Source: an uncultured Bacillota bacterium (lineage in GTDB: Bacteria > Bacillota_I > Bacilli_A > ML615J-28 > CAG-313). Taken from it: DNA of 55,737 nt. The translations under genes were made by a program, and so were the position numbers. The stretch lies in contig CAMODB010000005.1 in the NCBI GenBank assembly GCA_946611195.1, positions 1-55,737 of the forward strand, given 5' to 3'. Below are positions 1-8,278 of the stretch, in pieces; the stretch's first letter is position 1; every line of letters begins with the position of its first letter. The notes beneath the pieces were generated by a model. That model had not been told where the DNA came from and made no database searches. It was given only the letters and a program-made list of their open reading frames with translations.

Positions 1-77
1 GTTGTATCTATAGTATTATTAGATTCTATGAATCTTTTGCCACTCCCAGCTAGTAATAATATTAAAGCTTTAGTCAA
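1..77 (-). CDS. Partial (runs off window) sugar-phosphate nucleotidyltransferase, IspD/TarI-like N-terminus
   Basis: Not in the ORF track. TTG at 77 overlaps the end of the PAS gene, with AGGTGA SD upstream. Translates MTKALILLLAGSGKRFIESNNTIDT, matching the nucleotidyltransferase xILxAGxGxR motif. Confidence 0.6.
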   Translation of the reverse strand, partial: MTKALILLLAGSGKRFIESNNTIDT

Positions 78-1284
78 GTTTTTCACCTGTTTCATTTAAG
101 GTTTCATTTAATATTTTTTCATATTTATCAGCTGTTTTTGAGATTGGATTTCTTGCAAGATTATTCATTAAATCAATTGCTTCTTTGGTTGATAAAACTT
201 CTTCATTATTTTTATTACCATTATCAATCGAAGTAATATGAATAATAGATACTAATTCATCTTGATTTTTCGATAAATAAATTGAATCTTCAACCGCATT
301 AAAGACAATATTTTTAATCTTCATTCTAAATTTAATTCTTGTTAAATTAATAGAATTAATCGTCTTACTTTGTTCATTATAAAGATTTTTATCTTCATCA
401 ACAATTAAAGAATAAAATTCTTTAAAAGTTAATTCATTTCTTTCTAAATCACAGAATGAAGAAAAAGCTTGCGTTGTGTAATATAATTTTTCTTGATAAT
501 CAAAATATAGAACAATTCCTTCCGATAAAGACATTAAAACATGTAACATTTCTTTTGCTTTATAATGTTGATTAACAACTTCATCCAAAGCTCTTTTTAA
601 TTCTTTGGTTGCTTTTTCTCGGTCTTTATATAAATAAATAGCGGAACCAATCTTTTTATTTTTAAGAAAATGAGTTTGTACCAAACCTAAATAATGAGTT
701 GTTTCTTTTTCATTATAAAGACGAGCATCCATCGTAAATTCTAACATTTTAAGTTTGCTGGCATCATCATCTAAATGATTTAAAAAATAAGCTGCATTAC
801 TAGAAATGAATTGATTACCATCAATTAGTTCAATATTTAAATTATCAAAAAGAATCTTCCACCCTTTTTTACCTAAGAGTTCTTTTTTAGTAAGTCTTGT
901 TATTTCAATTAAAGAATTACTATATTCTAAAATATTACCATTTTCATCTAAAGATAGATATATATCATAAGTATCATTCTTAATTTGTTCATGTACTTCT
1001 CTTAAACAAATATCTTTCTTGATTTGATTTAAAAAGAAATATAATAGATAAAATACAAAGGCTAAGAATAAAAGTATGATCATAATATAGCGAAAGGCTT
1101 TACTATTTACGAAACTACTAAACGCAATAACAATGGCCACTACTAAGACAGCAAGATATATATAATCAACCATTTGTGGCTTTTTATTTAAATAAATTGA
1201 TATTGATAATATCATTAAAATACCAAAGACTATTCCCGCATAAGCTAGAAAAGAAGTAATTTGGACAAAAGTACTTAGTAGCAT
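70..1284 (-). CDS. Membrane protein, about 3 N-terminal TM helices plus two PAS-like domains, no output domain
   Basis: Hydrophobic first ~85 aa. PAS-like segments IYLSLDENGNILEYSNSLIEITRLTKKELLGK and LMSLSEGIVLYFDYQEKLYYTTQAF. AGGAGG SD. Confidence 0.6.
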   Translation of the reverse strand: MLLSTFVQITSFLAYAGIVFGILMILSISIYLNKKPQMVDYIYLAVLVVAIVIAFSSFVNSKAFRYIMIILLFLAFVFYLLYFFLNQIKKDICLREVHEQIKNDTYDIYLSLDENGNILEYSNSLIEITRLTKKELLGKKGWKILFDNLNIELIDGNQFISSNAAYFLNHLDDDASKLKMLEFTMDARLYNEKETTHYLGLVQTHFLKNKKIGSAIYLYKDREKATKELKRALDEVVNQHYKAKEMLHVLMSLSEGIVLYFDYQEKLYYTTQAFSSFCDLERNELTFKEFYSLIVDEDKNLYNEQSKTINSINLTRIKFRMKIKNIVFNAVEDSIYLSKNQDELVSIIHITSIDNGNKNNEEVLSTKEAIDLMNNLARNPISKTADKYEKILNETLNETGEKLD

Positions 1285-1294
1285 AAGAGACCTC

Positions 1295-2068
1295 CTATTT
1301 TACAATAATATGTTGATTTAAAGATAATTCTAAAGATTCTTTACTTAAATTACGAGTGATAGTTCCACCAATAGTAGTTGAAATATAACCTGTTTCTTCG
1401 GATACTACTAAGGTATACGCATCACTATCTTCACTAATACCGATAGCAGCTCTATGTCTTGAACCAAGTTCACTAGGAATATCGGCTTTATCAGATGGAG
1501 TATAGAAAACAGCTGCTGATACAATACGATTACCACGAATAATAACAGCACCATCATGTAAAGCTGTATTAGGGAAGAAAATTGTTCTTAATAATTCGGT
1601 TGTTACATTAGCATCTAATTTAACACCTTTATCAATATAAGTATTTAAATTATTTTCTTGTTCAATGGTAATTATAGCACCTATCTTTCTTTCGGAAAAA
1701 TAGAGGACTGTTTCTAATAATACTTTAATAAGATTTTGTTTTTCGTCTTCATTACTTAAATATTTAGGAGTAATCTTCTTATCGATAACATTTCTTTGAT
1801 GTTGTTTAAGTTCACTACTAGAAACATAAGTGATGGAGAAACTAAAGATAACGGTTGCGAGAATCGTTGTTAAAGCGATGTATTTTAAATCAAATACGAT
1901 ATATAAAACAATAATTAAAAGATAAACAATGGGAATGAAGATGACTACTTTTTTCTTGAATTTCTTCATAAGGCTTATCATAATAAGAATAAAGAAAACA
2001 AGTATTAACGCAACATCAAGCCAAAAACCGATGGTATTTTCTTCTAAATATTTGGTAATATTTTCCAT
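1295..2068 (-). CDS. cdaA: Diadenylate cyclase CdaA/DacA
   Basis: N-terminal TM helices, GAIITIE, LHDGAVII (DGA) and GSRHRAAIGISE (RHR) motifs. Confidence 0.95.
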   Translation of the reverse strand: MENITKYLEENTIGFWLDVALILVFFILIMISLMKKFKKKVVIFIPIVYLLIIVLYIVFDLKYIALTTILATVIFSFSITYVSSSELKQHQRNVIDKKITPKYLSNEDEKQNLIKVLLETVLYFSERKIGAIITIEQENNLNTYIDKGVKLDANVTTELLRTIFFPNTALHDGAVIIRGNRIVSAAVFYTPSDKADIPSELGSRHRAAIGISEDSDAYTLVVSEETGYISTTIGGTITRNLSKESLELSLNQHIIVK

Positions 2069-2079
2069 ATTTTCTCCTT

Positions 2080-2586
2080 TTATTTTTTTAATAAATTAAT
2101 CATTTTTTCATCTTTTTCATCTAACGCATAGTCAAGAGCAGATGAATTTCTTTCATCAACTAAGGAACGATCAATTCCTAAGTCTAATAATAATTGAGCT
2201 ATATCATAATTAGCATAGACAACTGCTAAATGAAGAGCTGATTGTTCTAATTCACAGCTGATATTAATATCACAACCAGCTTGAACTAATTCTTTAATTA
2301 ATTGAAATCTATTATTTCTTACTGCCAAATGGATTGGCGCATCATATTGATCATTACAGATATCTAAATTAAGACCCATTCTTTTTAAAAAGAGAAAAAG
2401 ACCATTAATATTATATTTAACTATATAATGGGCAATCGTATTGCCTTTTAAGTATTTTGTGTTAATATTAAATCCTTCTTTAACATAAGAACGAATTGTT
2501 CTTTTAAGATAAGCTAAATGATTATTATTATCACTTAAAAGATGAATAAGTTCCTTTAATACTTCTTTTTCTTCTTGTTTAGTCAT
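2080..2586 (-). CDS. Ankyrin repeat protein
   Basis: Repeated ankyrin motifs GNTIAHY, DAPIHLAV, QSALHLAV, SSALDYA. Confidence 0.9.
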   Translation of the reverse strand: MTKQEEKEVLKELIHLLSDNNNHLAYLKRTIRSYVKEGFNINTKYLKGNTIAHYIVKYNINGLFLFLKRMGLNLDICNDQYDAPIHLAVRNNRFQLIKELVQAGCDINISCELEQSALHLAVVYANYDIAQLLLDLGIDRSLVDERNSSALDYALDEKDEKMINLLKK

Positions 2587-5500
2587 TAATAAGTACTTCC
2601 TATCTTTTCTTCTTCATCAACGATATTTTTTATTTCGAGAATAATATCATTGAAGGAATTATATAAATCTTCCATTGAATAGACAAGAACTTTCCAACCC
2701 ATCTTTTTATAGATATTAACATAATATATATAATCATCAGTTAAAGAATAATGTTTATTCTTTCTCTTACCTAAAATGATTATACCAAAACGATCATGGG
2801 GTGTTCTAATGACAATATCAATTAAGCCAGGACCAAGTTTTGGTGAAAGTCCCGCATTAAGTAATGCATCAAAAACATAAGTAATAACACTTCCTTCAAT
2901 ATATGGTTGAAGAGGAGTAACATTAGTTATATAATTAGCGATATCCGTTTCATATTTTTCATTCACTTGTGGTGATTTAGTATTCTTATAAGAAAGATGA
3001 ATCATCTTTTTCGCATTGAAATAATTACGAATATAACGTTTCTTTTCATCTTCTTTTAAATCAATCAGTGCTGGATACCAGACATATAAATCATCACAAT
3101 TACGCGTAGCTTCACTACCAACCATAATTAAATTAATATGATTATCTAAGATTTCCATGGTTTGTTCACCACTATAACTTAAACGAATAATTTCAATTAA
3201 TGATTTATAGATTAAACGTTTATCAATTTCATTAAAGACTAAGATATTGATTTGCGAATTATTGGTTTCAAAATTCATAACCGCTTGTTCAACCATATCT
3301 TTTAAGGTATTATATTTTTCAATACTAATTCGCGAATCAGTATCATAAATATATTGATTGTCTTTGGTAAATTGATTTTGCGCTTCTTGTGATAATGATA
3401 GATATCTCTTCTTAATATGAATTAGATGAGAATCATCAATTCTTTGAATAAAAGTATTAGTAACTGATGATTCAAAATACTGGTCACCAAAGACTAAGAA
3501 TTGTTGATTTTCATTATTCTGTCTGAAGATTTGGGCATATTTATTAGCGGTTGCTAAATGTGCATCATCAACAATAATTGTATCAAAATAAGATAAATCG
3601 CTTAAATTATTTAAAGTATCAATATCTGTTAAGAAGATCTTTTTATATTTAGGAAGTTCTTTTAAATAGGTATCAAAATTATTGAAATCAAAGAAAGGTT
3701 CTTTCTTCTTCTTGGCTTTTCTTGCCATATCATTACAATAATTTCTTAAATCAACGAGATTATTATTACAATAATTTTCTTCACTTTCTAGATAAAAATG
3801 AATATCACTCTCAAGTCGATTAACATTGATACCACTAAAATTCTTTTCTTTTAATTCATTATAAAATAATAACATTGTCGAATATAAATAATTCTCAGCT
3901 AAGTTAGTTTGATATACCCCATCTTGAATCTTTTTCGCAAGATCATCTAATTTATATTTATAGAAGGAATCTAAGATATGTTCAATTTTGAAAACATGGG
4001 ATACTTGATCATAACGTTTAACATATTCATTTAAAGTCTTATCAACATCAACGAAGGAATAATTTTGAATATCCATCTTTCCACCATAAAAACAAGTAGA
4101 GAAAGCTCTTAACGCATTATACCATTCATCGTATAAATCAGTAAATTCTTGGTTATGGCTAATTAATTTTGTAAATAATTTTTCTTCATTGATAAGCTTT
4201 AAGATATCAATTTTACCACTCATGCGTTTCATGAATTTTAAGAAGTGCGCAACAGTTTGTCCTATTTCTACTACATTAGTATCAAATTCTTTAAAGGAGG
4301 AACCAAATAATTCTTTGAAAGTACGAGAATTGTTTTCAAATTCTTTTAAATTTTCTAAATATGTTTTATCTACTTCAATGATTAATTTCACATCGAAAGT
4401 ATTTATTACAGATTTGTTTTTAAAATACGAAATTAAATTGTTTCTTGATTGAATAACTCTTTCAAAATAGGGAACACTTGATTTAATATTTCTAACGATG
4501 CCTATAAAATGATTATCTTCAAATGTTAAATTATAAATAGCTAATTTACCTAAGATTTGTTTACCTTCTTCTTTTAAAGAATGAATGGTTTTACAAACAT
4601 TCAACATATTTTTAAGACGATTTTGTTCATCAATTTCATTGATAAAAGTAGATAAGCATAAGCTTTCATAACTTGAAATACTTGAAATAAATTTTAAAAA
4701 GCCTAAATAATTTTTTAAAACATATTCATTTAATTTTCTTAAATGTAAATTAGTAGGTAATAATTCAACAATTTCTTTACTGTATTTGTTATATAAGCGA
4801 ATATCTTCCATTAAGTCTTTAAGATCTTTTTTATCTTTTCTTAAATTCTTTTTGTCAATTCTTTTCTTTAAGATTTTTAAATAATTATTAGTTGAAAGAA
4901 TATTTGCTAATTCTTCGATATCCGCATCTTCAATATCATAATATTGATTAATATTCTTTAATAATTCATCGGCTTCAAGTATTTTATTATTTAATTCTTT
5001 ATATTTTTTAACCATTCCAAGTGGTGATATTGCGTATAAATTAAGCCATGATTCATCAATATTATATTTCTCAAATAAATCAATTAATTTATCCATAAAG
5101 ATAAATTGTTCTTTATTCGGTTCGCTGAATTTAAAATATTGTTTTGCTTTATCATAAGTCATGCTTGAAGATTCAATCCAAGTATTAATTTGCTTCACTA
5201 AATTATCGAAGGTTGGATTAGATGATAATAATAAATCGACATATTTATTATCTTCACTATCTTCATCATTTAATTTATAATGGCCATGACAAATAACTTT
5301 TAAATCTTTTTCACTGCTTCCGGCAACATAATCTTCACAAGCATTTTCTTTATACCATTCTAAGGAATTATAATTAAGGTCTATTTCTTTGGATAAGATA
5401 TCTAAATATTCATTAGATTTTTCTTTAAAGCCATTATCAATCCAACAAGAGATAGGTTTAACTCTTTCAAAAGATAATAATTGTTCAGTTAAATGATTGA

Positions 5501-6884
5501 AGTCCGCAATATCGACTATTTTATTTAAACCGACTTCTTTACAAAAATCATTTAAAATTGATACTAATTTTTCATTAACGGCATAATAATTAGCTGTTCT
5601 TTCAATAATTTCATTAACCTTAGGAGCAGTAGGGGAAGAAAGAAGAGTTGACCAATAATTAGATGTAAATGGATCAACAAAACTAAATTCATATTCGATT
5701 TCTTTTAAGCTTTTATAAATGAATTCAACTTCTTCTATTTCAAGTTTACTTGATGCATCGATGATGTTATCATCACCTTTTTGTTTCATACAAGTTAATT
5801 TTTCAATAATATAACTATATGGATAACCATGATATTTATAATCAAAGATAGCTTCTTCACTAGCTAAAGAATCAATAGTTTTAAAATCAAAATCGGGTTT
5901 TTTAGTTAATAATTCAATATCGCCAGCAAATTTTAAATGATGAGAATTATTAATTTCACAAACTAAATTATATAAGCCTAAACGATATAAATCTTTTCTC
6001 AGACAATTTATATTAACAATATCATGATTTAGATATAATACTTTCTTACCATTAGCTACTAAATCAGCTATGATATTTAAAATAGTTAAGGTTTTACCAG
6101 TACCTACTCGACCATCAACACCAAAACTTTTACCTAAATGAGCAGTATAAATAAGATGTTTTTGTTCAATATTCGTTGGTGTTATTGCTTTACAATTAGT
6201 AAAGAATTGGCGAAGTAAACTAATATCATTATATTCATTAATTGAGCCTTGATGATCAAAAGCATTATTGGGAATTACTAAATCGGAATATTCAATTTCC
6301 ATTTTGGTTAGGAAATTAGATGTTGATACGACTAAATTAAAATCATTAATTAATTTTAAACAAATATTATCAATATCATCTACTCTTTGAATCTTATAAT
6401 CCATTAAAGAATTTAAATATATTAAGGCATTTTGATTTAAGATATTATTGTTTTCCGCATATTTCTTAAATACGACATTAAAGGATGGAGCAGCACTCAT
6501 ATAAACTAAATTATCTTTTAAATCGATAGTAATTGGAAGTAAAATAATTGGTGCATATTTTTCCGTTTCAATTTCATCAAGATAACGAATTGTTCCACAA
6601 GTAATCACGATTTTAATCGATGAGTTGTGCGCAAAAAATTCATAAAGATAATTAATTTGATAATTAACTTCTTTATTATCTTGATTATATAATTGACCAA
6701 CACCATCTATTAAAATTTTTTCATCGAATAAATCTGTTAATTTTTTTACTCCACCTTGAAGTAAATCATCAATAACTTGAAAAGGAATTGTTCCTACTTC
6801 AATATAGTATTCACTATCAAGAATATTTAGTAAATGTGTGTTTTTTGATCTAATGTTATAAGTAGTAGTAAAATTTCTGCTCAT
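2586..6884 (-). CDS. DUF4011-like / SF1 (UPF1-like) helicase / C-terminal Vsr-MTES_1575-like nuclease fusion, degenerate
   Basis: YAPIILLPITI (DUF4011-like). Walker A GRVGTGKT in GKSF..G..GTGK.TI.NIIA...A.GKKVL context. Walker B-like IIVDDAH, GDQ. C-terminal IDIVI...GW nuclease-like tail. Long helical insert between Walker A and B. Confidence 0.7.
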   Translation of the reverse strand: MSRNFTTTYNIRSKNTHLLNILDSEYYIEVGTIPFQVIDDLLQGGVKKLTDLFDEKILIDGVGQLYNQDNKEVNYQINYLYEFFAHNSSIKIVITCGTIRYLDEIETEKYAPIILLPITIDLKDNLVYMSAAPSFNVVFKKYAENNNILNQNALIYLNSLMDYKIQRVDDIDNICLKLINDFNLVVSTSNFLTKMEIEYSDLVIPNNAFDHQGSINEYNDISLLRQFFTNCKAITPTNIEQKHLIYTAHLGKSFGVDGRVGTGKTLTILNIIADLVANGKKVLYLNHDIVNINCLRKDLYRLGLYNLVCEINNSHHLKFAGDIELLTKKPDFDFKTIDSLASEEAIFDYKYHGYPYSYIIEKLTCMKQKGDDNIIDASSKLEIEEVEFIYKSLKEIEYEFSFVDPFTSNYWSTLLSSPTAPKVNEIIERTANYYAVNEKLVSILNDFCKEVGLNKIVDIADFNHLTEQLLSFERVKPISCWIDNGFKEKSNEYLDILSKEIDLNYNSLEWYKENACEDYVAGSSEKDLKVICHGHYKLNDEDSEDNKYVDLLLSSNPTFDNLVKQINTWIESSSMTYDKAKQYFKFSEPNKEQFIFMDKLIDLFEKYNIDESWLNLYAISPLGMVKKYKELNNKILEADELLKNINQYYDIEDADIEELANILSTNNYLKILKKRIDKKNLRKDKKDLKDLMEDIRLYNKYSKEIVELLPTNLHLRKLNEYVLKNYLGFLKFISSISSYESLCLSTFINEIDEQNRLKNMLNVCKTIHSLKEEGKQILGKLAIYNLTFEDNHFIGIVRNIKSSVPYFERVIQSRNNLISYFKNKSVINTFDVKLIIEVDKTYLENLKEFENNSRTFKELFGSSFKEFDTNVVEIGQTVAHFLKFMKRMSGKIDILKLINEEKLFTKLISHNQEFTDLYDEWYNALRAFSTCFYGGKMDIQNYSFVDVDKTLNEYVKRYDQVSHVFKIEHILDSFYKYKLDDLAKKIQDGVYQTNLAENYLYSTMLLFYNELKEKNFSGINVNRLESDIHFYLESEENYCNNNLVDLRNYCNDMARKAKKKKEPFFDFNNFDTYLKELPKYKKIFLTDIDTLNNLSDLSYFDTIIVDDAHLATANKYAQIFRQNNENQQFLVFGDQYFESSVTNTFIQRIDDSHLIHIKKRYLSLSQEAQNQFTKDNQYIYDTDSRISIEKYNTLKDMVEQAVMNFETNNSQINILVFNEIDKRLIYKSLIEIIRLSYSGEQTMEILDNHINLIMVGSEATRNCDDLYVWYPALIDLKEDEKKRYIRNYFNAKKMIHLSYKNTKSPQVNEKYETDIANYITNVTPLQPYIEGSVITYVFDALLNAGLSPKLGPGLIDIVIRTPHDRFGIIILGKRKNKHYSLTDDYIYYVNIYKKMGWKVLVYSMEDLYNSFNDIILEIKNIVDEEEKIGSTY

Positions 6885-6918
6885 AGTACCCTCATTTTAA
6901 CATTTATATTTATATTAC

Positions 6919-6981
6919 ATTATAACACAAAATATCAAAATAAACTTTAAATTAGTTATTTAAATTATTTTATGTTATAAT
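6919..6981. promoter_or_regulatory. Divergent promoters, each with extended -10 TGTTATAAT
   Basis: attataaca at 6919-6927 (minus, helicase operon) and tgttataat at 6973-6981 (plus, hflX). SD AGGAGGT precedes hflX. Confidence 0.6.
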
Positions 6982-7006
6982 ATTTTCGAAACATTAGGAG
7001 GTAAAC

Positions 7007-8278
7007 ATGTTAGATACAAGAAATAAAGCCATTATTTGTGGAATTAATTTTGGACATGATGAAGATTTTAATTATTCTTTTTCTGAGTTAAAGAATTTAT
7101 GTGAAGCATGTCAATTAGATGTCGTTTGTGAAGTTGTTCAAAATCTAAATACTCCTAATACGCGTTATTATTTTGGTATTGGAAAAATTAATGAACTTAA
7201 AAATTTAGTTGATTTTCATCAAGCAGATATCGTTATTTTTGATGATGAATTATCCCCTGCTACTTTAGTAAACATTATGGATGAAATTGAAGTAGAAGTA
7301 ATTGATCGAACAATGTTAATTTTAAGAATCTTTGAAAAAAGAGCTAAAACTAAAGAAGCTAAACTGCAAGTAGAAATTGCTAAATTATCTTATCTCTTAC
7401 CTCGTTTAGTAGGATATCATAAGAATCTATCCAGAATTGGTGGTTCTGGTGGTTCAACTCATACTAGAGGTAGCGGGGAAACCGCCCTTGAATTAGACCG
7501 TAGACACATCGAAGAACGTATTTCTAAATTAAAAAGTGAATTAGCTGATCTTTCTTTAAATCGTTTAACCGCAAGAAAACAAAGGATTAAAAATGAAATG
7601 AAAATTGTTTCTTTTGTTGGTTATACAAATGCGGGGAAATCAACTACTATTAATACCCTTTTATCTGTTTTAAATGAGGATGAAGAAAATAAATATTTAT
7701 ATGCGGAAGATATGTTATTCGCAACCCTTGAAACATCAACAAGAAGAATTAAATTAAATAATAATCATGAATTCTTACTTACCGATACGGTTGGTTTTGT
7801 GTCTAAGCTTCCTCATCATTTAATTGAAGCTTTTAAATCAACCTTAGAAGAAATTAGGGAATCTAGTTTAATTATTCATTTAATTGATTCTTCAAGTCCA
7901 TATCTTGATAAACAAATTGAAACTACTAATCTAGTATTAAAAGAATTAGGTTGTGAAAATATTAAAACATTATATGTCTATAATAAAATAGATTTGATTA
8001 AAAATATGGTTTTCTTTAATCCAATCATAAAAGCGGATTTATTAATCAGTAACAAAACCAATGAGGGTATAAATGAATTAATTGAATTAATTGATAATAA
8101 TCTTTTCGATGATCTTAAAACTACTTTATTACTTCCTTTTTCGAAAGGAGATATCTACAATGTTCTAAAATTAAAAGCTAATATTTTATCAACTGAATAT
8201 TTAAATGAAGGTATCAAAGTAGAAGTAATCTTGAGTAAACATCTTTATTCTTTATATCAAGAATATATCTTAAAATAA
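7007..8278 (+). CDS. hflX: GTPase HflX
   Basis: GxGK..E, DR..LIL.IF..RA.T.EAKLQVE, GETALELDRR, VGYTNAGKST, DTVGF motifs. Confidence 0.97.
   Translation: MLDTRNKAIICGINFGHDEDFNYSFSELKNLCEACQLDVVCEVVQNLNTPNTRYYFGIGKINELKNLVDFHQADIVIFDDELSPATLVNIMDEIEVEVIDRTMLILRIFEKRAKTKEAKLQVEIAKLSYLLPRLVGYHKNLSRIGGSGGSTHTRGSGETALELDRRHIEERISKLKSELADLSLNRLTARKQRIKNEMKIVSFVGYTNAGKSTTINTLLSVLNEDEENKYLYAEDMLFATLETSTRRIKLNNNHEFLLTDTVGFVSKLPHHLIEAFKSTLEEIRESSLIIHLIDSSSPYLDKQIETTNLVLKELGCENIKTLYVYNKIDLIKNMVFFNPIIKADLLISNKTNEGINELIELIDNNLFDDLKTTLLLPFSKGDIYNVLKLKANILSTEYLNEGIKVEVILSKHLYSLYQEYILK

Follow-up and report, generated by a model that had tools for sequence, protein, structure and literature searches.

Which partners serve the diadenylate cyclase CdaA in a bacterium that encodes it behind a degenerate helicase-nuclease and an ankyrin protein? 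The question is raised by the first genes of the stretch analysed here (the window), 55,737 nucleotides that form one whole contig of a metagenome-assembled genome (MAG) from an uncultured Bacillota bacterium (assembly G000; 0.98 Mb, 65% complete; window DNA 28% GC). One after the other, its minus strand encodes a very large degenerate helicase-nuclease (here called HEL), a small ankyrin-repeat protein (ANK), CdaA, the enzyme of cyclic di-AMP (c-di-AMP) synthesis, and a membrane protein with transmembrane (TM) helices and two PAS domains (Table 1). A reading made from the sequence only had seen in these genes a tight operon, perhaps a second-messenger stress or defence module, and had allowed for a chance juxtaposition. 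Our comparison with related genomes reveals that the four genes are a genuine, deeply conserved unit. We consider it slightly better than an even bet (roughly 55%) that this unit is a vertically inherited, lineage-specific core housekeeping operon, with HEL, ANK and the TM-PAS protein serving the only CdaA as its partners or regulators and taking the place of CdaR and GlmM. In the following, f1 is the window's own family, f2 a second family of the same order and f4 a family of the neighbouring order in the same class; L and G numbers denote related loci and genomes, C1 and C11 other contigs of G000, and g numbers genera.

The order HEL-ANK-CdaA is retained across about 90 loci in these three families and two orders. 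It is present in all of 20 retrieved related loci bar one, which lacks ANK, and in 65 of the 67 informative loci among 69 taken from named public records. The second order is no exception: all six f4 genomes carry HEL-ANK-CdaA, each within the full arrangement ClpC-like - HEL - ANK - CdaA - MGS-like (methylglyoxal synthase-like) - TM-PAS-PAS-GGDEF - MTHFS - IspD - IspF. The gene that follows cdaA usually encodes a membrane PAS-PAS protein, with or without a degenerate GGDEF domain. Chance juxtaposition is ruled out by this conservation in relatives of both orders, and the synteny survey, which the sequence-only reading had itself put forward as a check, has clearly come out in favour of a conserved order. 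Junctions are tight throughout 85 loci: from HEL to ANK the median is -11 nt (at most 20 nt in 84), from ANK to CdaA it is -1 nt (at most 20 nt in 78), and as a rule ANK shares stop/start overlaps with both of its neighbours.

The module is core and not accessory. Of 61 genomes from the same order, 59 carry HEL, each as a single copy, and they represent 29 of 29 genera. Its identity tracks taxonomy, from 54% between members of the genus down to about 20% over the whole order. In a set of 300 genomes of the class, full-length HEL is confined to f1, f2 and f4. ANK orthologues (187 bits or more) are restricted to these same families; below them no ankyrin protein exceeds 113 bits, and none of the other ankyrin genes of the class adjoins a diadenylate cyclase (DAC) gene. 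No plasmid or phage relative of HEL was matched. The titles of public records that carry the operon name Acholeplasmatales, Acholeplasmataceae, Anaeroplasma, 'Mollicutes' and Bacilli MAGs, and in a few cases taxa outside this group. Some operon-bearing MAGs (L043, L067, L070, L034 and others) are labelled Prevotella, Bacteroidales or Staphylococcaceae, which are probably mislabels or cases of bin contamination.

A second line of evidence concerns what these genomes lack. In 41 relatives there is one DAC gene per genome, always this cdaA, with the exception of a single MAG that is 5% contaminated. CdaR/YbbR was found in none of the 32 high-quality relatives. GlmM passed the cut-off in one of 41 relatives and is regarded as absent, the only matches being phosphomutase paralogues of 565 aa; RadA/Sms passed its own in none of the 41, and no DAC protein of the size of DisA was seen in the relatives. 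The unusual setting of cdaA that had been noticed in the window is thereby confirmed for the lineage: the customary cdaR and glmM neighbours are absent, and a TM-PAS-PAS gene lies downstream instead. Since every known CdaA partner is missing, some replacement is to be expected. Because too much of the essential messenger c-di-AMP is toxic, no CdaA can go uncontrolled. To our knowledge the only controllers of CdaA, CdaR and GlmM, are both tied to the cell wall, and the Acholeplasma/Anaeroplasma group studied here consists of gut bacteria without a wall.

The chromosomal setting suggests a comparison with a different cyclase system. In most relatives, those of the same genus included, the cluster has a shortened ClpC-like gene in front of HEL and ispD-ispF behind it. 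In the RadA-bearing families of the class it is radA that lies between clpC and ispD/ispF (clpC-radA-3.6 kb-ispDF in L120, radA-ispDF in L118 and L119), and the order in Bacillus subtilis is clpC-radA-disA-yacL-ispD-ispF. By this alignment of neighbourhoods HEL-ANK-cdaA sits in the radA(-disA) slot, and it is from this position that the analogy with RadA-DisA is drawn. RadA/Sms is nearly universal in bacteria; within the class it is missing from 45 of 61 sampled genomes, all HEL-bearing families among them. The analogy is only suggestive, because many families of the class have neither RadA nor HEL and because in the sampled relatives radA is followed by glpX, rluA-like, methyltransferase and GNAT genes and never by disA. 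For the first of these reasons the idea of HEL as a strict replacement of RadA, which the shared slot would favour, is only partly tenable.

Several observations weigh against HEL and ANK as partners of CdaA. ANK is dispensable: it has been lost at least twice, in g3 (L026, L051, L055) and in g15 (L112), and HEL and cdaA have stayed adjacent. The conserved block also holds unrelated genes (mgsA-like, MTHFS for 5-formyltetrahydrofolate (5-formyl-THF) cyclo-ligase, ispD/ispF and clpC-like), and synteny alone therefore over-predicts functional links in compact genomes. Natural fusions of HEL, ANK and CdaA were not found. An apparent ANK-CdaA fusion, seen as a 456-aa ANK open reading frame (ORF) in L066 and as a 452-aa frame in G019, proved to be an artefact, the ORFs being separate on reading. 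The losses of ANK and the unrelated genes would both be at home in a conserved superoperon without any coupling to c-di-AMP, in which HEL, perhaps together with ANK, is a housekeeping nucleic-acid factor in the radA slot, and cdaA, the PAS gene and ispDF are mere co-transcribed neighbours. The synteny of clpC-[HEL-ANK-cdaA]-...-ispD-ispF with clpC-radA-...-ispD-ispF in the RadA-bearing families points in the same direction. We regard such a superoperon as possible, with the odds clearly against it: HEL and ANK arose together and occur only before cdaA, down to about 20% identity of HEL; the overlaps that flank ANK are as regular as described above; the missing CdaA partners call for some replacement; and the families devoid of both RadA and HEL show that HEL is no simple RadA substitute.

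What HEL may contribute depends on what is left of its helicase and nuclease. Domain searches with the window protein yielded only local P-loop matches, and nothing to DUF4011 (PF13195) at E<=0.1. Among 16 orthologues, 10 match DUF4011, weakly (best E=2e-5), and 10 match AAA_11, but none matches AAA_12 or any nuclease family of Pfam. Profile comparison reaches further: the HEL family aligns with the N-terminal third of a canonical DUF4011 paralogue with an hhalign probability of 98.9% (residues 91-515), and with IGHMBP2 and Sen1 at motifs Q, I, Ia and II-III, between which lies a helical insert of about 800 aa. An AlphaFold2 model of residues 233-1432 (mean predicted local distance difference test score, pLDDT, 84.5) displays a two-RecA helicase-like core, for which Foldseek returns HelD, SLFN11, DbpA, IGHMBP2, Sen1 and UPF1. 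The best of these (HelD, Sen1, IGHMBP2, UPF1) are RNA polymerase- or RNA-associated superfamily 1 (SF1) proteins, which is a further point for the superoperon without c-di-AMP coupling. These comparisons place HEL, as a very divergent offshoot, in the DUF4011/Upf1-like helicase/restriction endonuclease (REase) family of Hhe/ProA type.

The canonical paralogue used in this comparison lies in the same genome, outside the window (G000 C1:89267-93841, minus strand, 1523 aa). It matches DUF4011 (106 bits), AAA_11, AAA_12 and REase_MTES_1575 (93 bits), scores 1068 bits against ProA and 734 bits against Hhe, and has all helicase and nuclease motifs intact (FDLVIFDEASQ...IIVGDSKQMPP, TVQGDERD, VAVTRAK, IELDG). 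This paralogue is a plausible true defence-type relative of HEL, its ProA and Hhe scores lying below the equivalog cut-offs.

Compared with the canonical protein, HEL is reduced in a particular manner. Across 57 orthologues the residues Q241 (Q motif), G258, G263 and K264 (Walker A), F1100/D1101, D1106/D1107 and G1133 (motif III) are invariant, as are W481, Y806 and F932 elsewhere. Invariant positions of the N-domain are P112, L115 and P117. Motif II reads DD instead of the canonical DE and has lost the Q of DEAxQ; from motif III the QxxPP has disappeared, and motifs V and VI are not recognisable. The last 300 aa contain no invariant column in the 57 orthologues. There, IDIVI...GIIILG occupies the position of the canonical IDLAV...AIELDG, and the E-x-D of the nuclease is lost; the alignment to the REase domain of the paralogue, which places GIIILG on AIELDG, has a probability of 45% (E=2e-4). 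The modelled C-terminal domain (pLDDT 82) finds only PD-(D/E)xK-type folds among its top matches (EndA, Hjc, the restriction-like endonuclease (RLE) domain of R2, 3hrl and I-Bth0305I), all of them weak (E>=0.03). The earlier description of HEL as a degenerate helicase-nuclease is thus borne out by the loss of motifs V/VI and of the nuclease residues and by the absence of AAA_12 from all 16 orthologues. Apart from its fold, what the protein retains is the nucleotide-binding pocket, made up of the Q motif, Walker A, motif Ia, the DD of motif II and the glycine of motif III, whereas the motifs of RecA2 are gone. It has no hydrophobic segments. Its ratio of nonsynonymous to synonymous substitution rates (dN/dS) is 0.05-0.2 over the whole length and 0.02-0.18 over the 'dead' C-terminal 330 aa, and because the ratio is low even there, the scaffold must be under purifying selection. 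We infer that HEL serves as a switch or scaffold that binds ATP but hydrolyses it poorly or not at all.

The same features bear on the proposal of a defence module. In that proposal, which we consider highly improbable, HEL would be a nucleic-acid sensor of Hhe/ProA type that answers phage or stress by making CdaA send out a cyclic-dinucleotide signal, by analogy with CBASS. HEL does share its ancestry with the canonical ProA/Hhe-like protein of its own genome and keeps the overall layout of Hhe and ProA (DUF4011, Upf1-like SF1 helicase and REase_MTES_1575/Vsr-like nuclease): a DUF4011-like N-domain with APxxLxPV, motifs Q, I and Ia, the long helical insert, motifs II/III, a second RecA-like domain and a small endonuclease-like domain. 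Weak local matches to defence models exist as well, namely to ProA (NF058533, 56.2 bits) and Hhe (NF042953, 26.1 bits), both over residues ~238-312 of HEL, to the PADLOC model PDC-S37 (65 bits) and, for ANK, to PDC-M72A (49 bits). All of these scores, however, are far under the family cut-offs, which for ProA and Hhe are 1500 and 2000 bits. Unlike Hhe and ProA genes, that of HEL is core, single-copy and not patchy in distribution, and is followed by ANK-cdaA; its protein has the altered motif II and has lost motifs V/VI and the catalytic residues of the nuclease. Relatives of HEL are missing from plasmids and phages, the cluster contains no effector gene, its CdaA is the cell's only cyclase and a housekeeping one, and the core genes hflX, dus and ispDF flank it. 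We therefore reject a defence system: the distribution of HEL does not fit, its catalytic residues are lost, its scores stay below the thresholds and it is absent from mobile elements. The defence part of the sequence-only reading is not upheld.

The literature offers little to compare with. What we found on DUF4011 proteins were defence surveys or surveys of integrative and conjugative elements; no paper was found that links ankyrin or DUF4011 proteins to CdaA, and on c-di-AMP in Acholeplasma nothing was found beyond a riboswitch survey. Database names of HEL and ANK relatives are generic or absent. The operon also illustrates clearly how the scaffold of a defence-type helicase-nuclease has been domesticated into a catalytically silent core protein, which purifying selection maintains in two orders or more, and it cautions against taking every DUF4011/Hhe-like gene for an anti-phage gene.

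How could the products act together in the core operon that we prefer? GlmM inhibits CdaA/DacA by binding directly to the DAC domain (PMC8573169, PMC6368335). We infer that HEL and ANK are physically coupled to CdaA, and an adaptor role is the most economical reading of ANK. HEL would act as a non-unwinding, ATP-binding and possibly nucleic-acid-binding switch or scaffold, which ANK would join to the cytoplasmic DAC domain of CdaA. ANK would thereby determine how easily CdaA pairs into the head-to-head dimers needed for catalysis, a step that in Bacillus and Staphylococcus is blocked by GlmM. In the place normally held by CdaR, the TM-PAS protein would provide a second input from the membrane side. 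On this assumption the partners of CdaA in this operon, namely an ankyrin adaptor, a pseudo-helicase that binds nucleotide and a TM-PAS protein, form a set that is so far unexplored.

A more specific variant would regard HEL-ANK-CdaA as a membrane-tethered functional analogue of the RadA-DisA checkpoint, derived by exaptation from a helicase-nuclease of defence type. RadA/Sms of B. subtilis interacts with DisA, and c-di-AMP synthesis is suppressed upon DNA binding (PMC8645862). By analogy, the dead HEL would bind ATP together with a nucleic-acid structure such as stalled forks, R-loops or free ends, and would switch the sole diadenylate cyclase off or on via the ankyrin adaptor. Like the RadA/Sms-DisA pair of B. 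subtilis and mycobacteria, the operon has a gene for a P-loop protein of DNA-motor type directly upstream of a diadenylate cyclase gene, within a clpC...ispD-ispF neighbourhood. The differences are considerable: HEL is SF1/Upf1-like and not homologous to the RecA/Lon-like RadA, it looks catalytically impaired and its DNA binding is only putative, an ankyrin protein is interposed, and the cyclase is the membrane protein CdaA, in contrast to DisA, which is soluble, octameric and equipped with a helix-hairpin-helix (HhH) domain. We judge this variant rather unlikely. If true, it would link the status of genome or transcription to osmotic and ion homeostasis in bacteria without RadA, DisA, CdaR and GlmM.

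As to the remaining proteins of the operon, ANK matches Ank_2 (PF12796) with 66.6 bits (cut-off 27.3), in addition to Ank_3, Ank_4 and Ank_5, and the family alignment comprises about four repeats and a conserved LVDExN..PLDYAxDE tail. CdaA has a clear DAC domain (PF02457, 135 bits vs a cut-off of 27) with the DGA motif in LHDGAVII and the RHR motif in GSRHRAAIG, preceded by hydrophobic segments within residues 10-83 that would form about three TM helices. Its score against TIGR00159 (180.5 bits) is just below the cut-off of 188.8, but no other model fits better: CdaM (141.6 bits), CdaS (133.9 bits) and DisA (37.2 bits; cut-off 201) all score lower.

In the PAS protein three TM segments, located within residues 5-89, precede two PAS-like domains, and a tail of 50 aa follows; the protein passes TIGR00229 (24.5 bits vs 22.9) and falls just under the cut-off of Pfam PAS (PF00989, 20.4 vs 22.6). 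The f1 family of this protein aligns with the f2/f4 family over the TM-PAS-PAS region (hhalign 99.4%), and the f4 orthologues exceed the cut-offs of PAS_9, PAS_3 and GGDEF, the GGDEF signature being a degenerate xxxEY. The window protein is by this comparison a truncated orthologue of the TM-PAS-PAS-degenerate-GGDEF proteins, whose GGDEF domain is completely lost in the window's family. Two other identities were considered and discarded. A YacL-type PIN/TRAM protein, whose gene occupies that slot in B. subtilis, is not supported by any such Pfam match, the architecture being TM-PAS-PAS(-degenerate GGDEF) instead. Nor is the PAS protein one part of a split GdpP, as a separate DHH protein in a frame of about 820 aa adjoins dnaB in the relatives. 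With the regulatory half of GdpP the downstream family does share N-terminal TM helices, PAS domains and (in f2 and f4) a degenerate GGDEF domain; in contrast to GdpP it lacks DHH/DHHA1, no DHH match being present in the window protein or in the f2/f4 orthologues, it has two PAS domains against one, and the window copy is without GGDEF.

The comparison with the cdaA-cdaR-glmM operon can be drawn in similar terms. Both arrangements encode a membrane CdaA with about three TM helices, a DAC domain and the DGA/RHR motifs, and both place cdaA with presumed regulators, one of which is a soluble cytoplasmic and the other a membrane protein encoded directly downstream. The regulators themselves differ: here an ankyrin protein and a pseudo-helicase are encoded upstream and a TM-PAS-PAS protein downstream, none of them homologous to CdaR or GlmM.

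The other side of the c-di-AMP balance looks conventional, because the relatives possess a GdpP-like DHH gene and two NrnA-like genes. Each has one DHH-domain gene, the frame mentioned above, beside a DnaB-like gene and thus in a GdpP-like position (e.g. G045:C26:16689-17165), and two tandem NrnA-like genes of about 320 aa. Neither DHH nor NrnA-like genes were found in the incomplete G000 assembly.

Table 1. Features of the HEL-ANK-cdaA-PAS region in the window (positions on the whole contig).
Feature	Position	Strand	Description
5' end of fused ispD/ispF	1..77	-	TTG start 77-75; runs off contig
PAS protein	70..1284	-	404 aa; membrane TM-PAS-PAS
CdaA	1295..2068	-	257 aa; membrane diadenylate cyclase
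ANK	2080..2586	-	168 aa; soluble; N-terminal helix + four ankyrin repeats
HEL	2586..6884	-	1432 aa; soluble degenerate DUF4011/Upf1-like SF1 helicase/REase-like protein, nucleotide pocket intact
HEL C-terminal endonuclease-like domain	2589..2891	-	~residues 1332-1432
HEL motifs II + III FDTIIVDDAHL...LVFGDQ	3480..3587	-	residues 1100-1135
HEL Walker A GRVGTGKT	6090..6113	-	residues 258-265; Q motif N238/Q241 just upstream
HEL DUF4011-like N-domain	6195..6884	-	~residues 1-230; conserved YYxELG and E-K-F-A-P-I-V-L-I-P-V
Upstream spacer hflX/HEL	6885..7006 (122 bp)	-	extended -10 TGtTATAAT 6927-6919; ribosome-binding site GAGGG 6893-6889
hflX	7007-8278	+	divergent from HEL; Pfam GTP-bdg_N/M + MMR_HSR1

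Within the window the junctions can be read as they had first been described. The HEL stop codon TAA overlaps the ATG of ANK at the shared base 2586 (TAATG), 11 bp separate ANK from CdaA and 10 bp CdaA from the PAS gene, and the series runs on into an IspD-like gene. To these our reading adds a fourth junction: the start of this last gene, which encodes the N-terminus of a nucleotidyltransferase (LTKALILLLAGSGKRF), overlaps the stop of the PAS gene by 8 nt. Shine-Dalgarno sequences precede each downstream gene (AGGAG for cdaA, AGGAGG for the PAS gene, AGGTGA for ispD), and there is no terminator-like site in positions 1-7300 of the window. The single promoter that had been claimed fares less uniformly: the extended -10 element in the HEL/hflX spacer speaks for it, but a consensus scan found 58 sites, no better than the 60.5 expected from shuffles, and is uninformative in AT-rich DNA. 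A single promoter in this spacer is plausible but unproven.

The surroundings of the operon vary among the relatives. The shortened ClpC-like gene (Clp_N, AAA, AAA_lid_9 and partial AAA_2; ~550-640 aa) stands between hflX and HEL in the same-genus relatives L014, L016, L034, L035 and L059. It is missing from this position in G000 and in its closest relative L013, and the 65%-complete G000 assembly contains no clpC-like match anywhere. In f2/f4 loci (e.g. L028:6528-6881, L102:5416-5799) the small MGS-like gene lies between cdaA and the TM-PAS gene, and the 5-formyl-THF cyclo-ligase gene before ispD; both are absent from the operon of the window. One related MAG has an extra ORF of 1356 aa (MNNIKFNETFDYKLIYVF...) immediately upstream of HEL (L061:770-4840). 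Finally, the remainder of the fused IspD/IspF gene of the window is located at a contig end of the same assembly (C11:29497-30579). The window and C11 carry two halves of one ispD/ispF gene, and the two contigs are probably neighbours in the chromosome.

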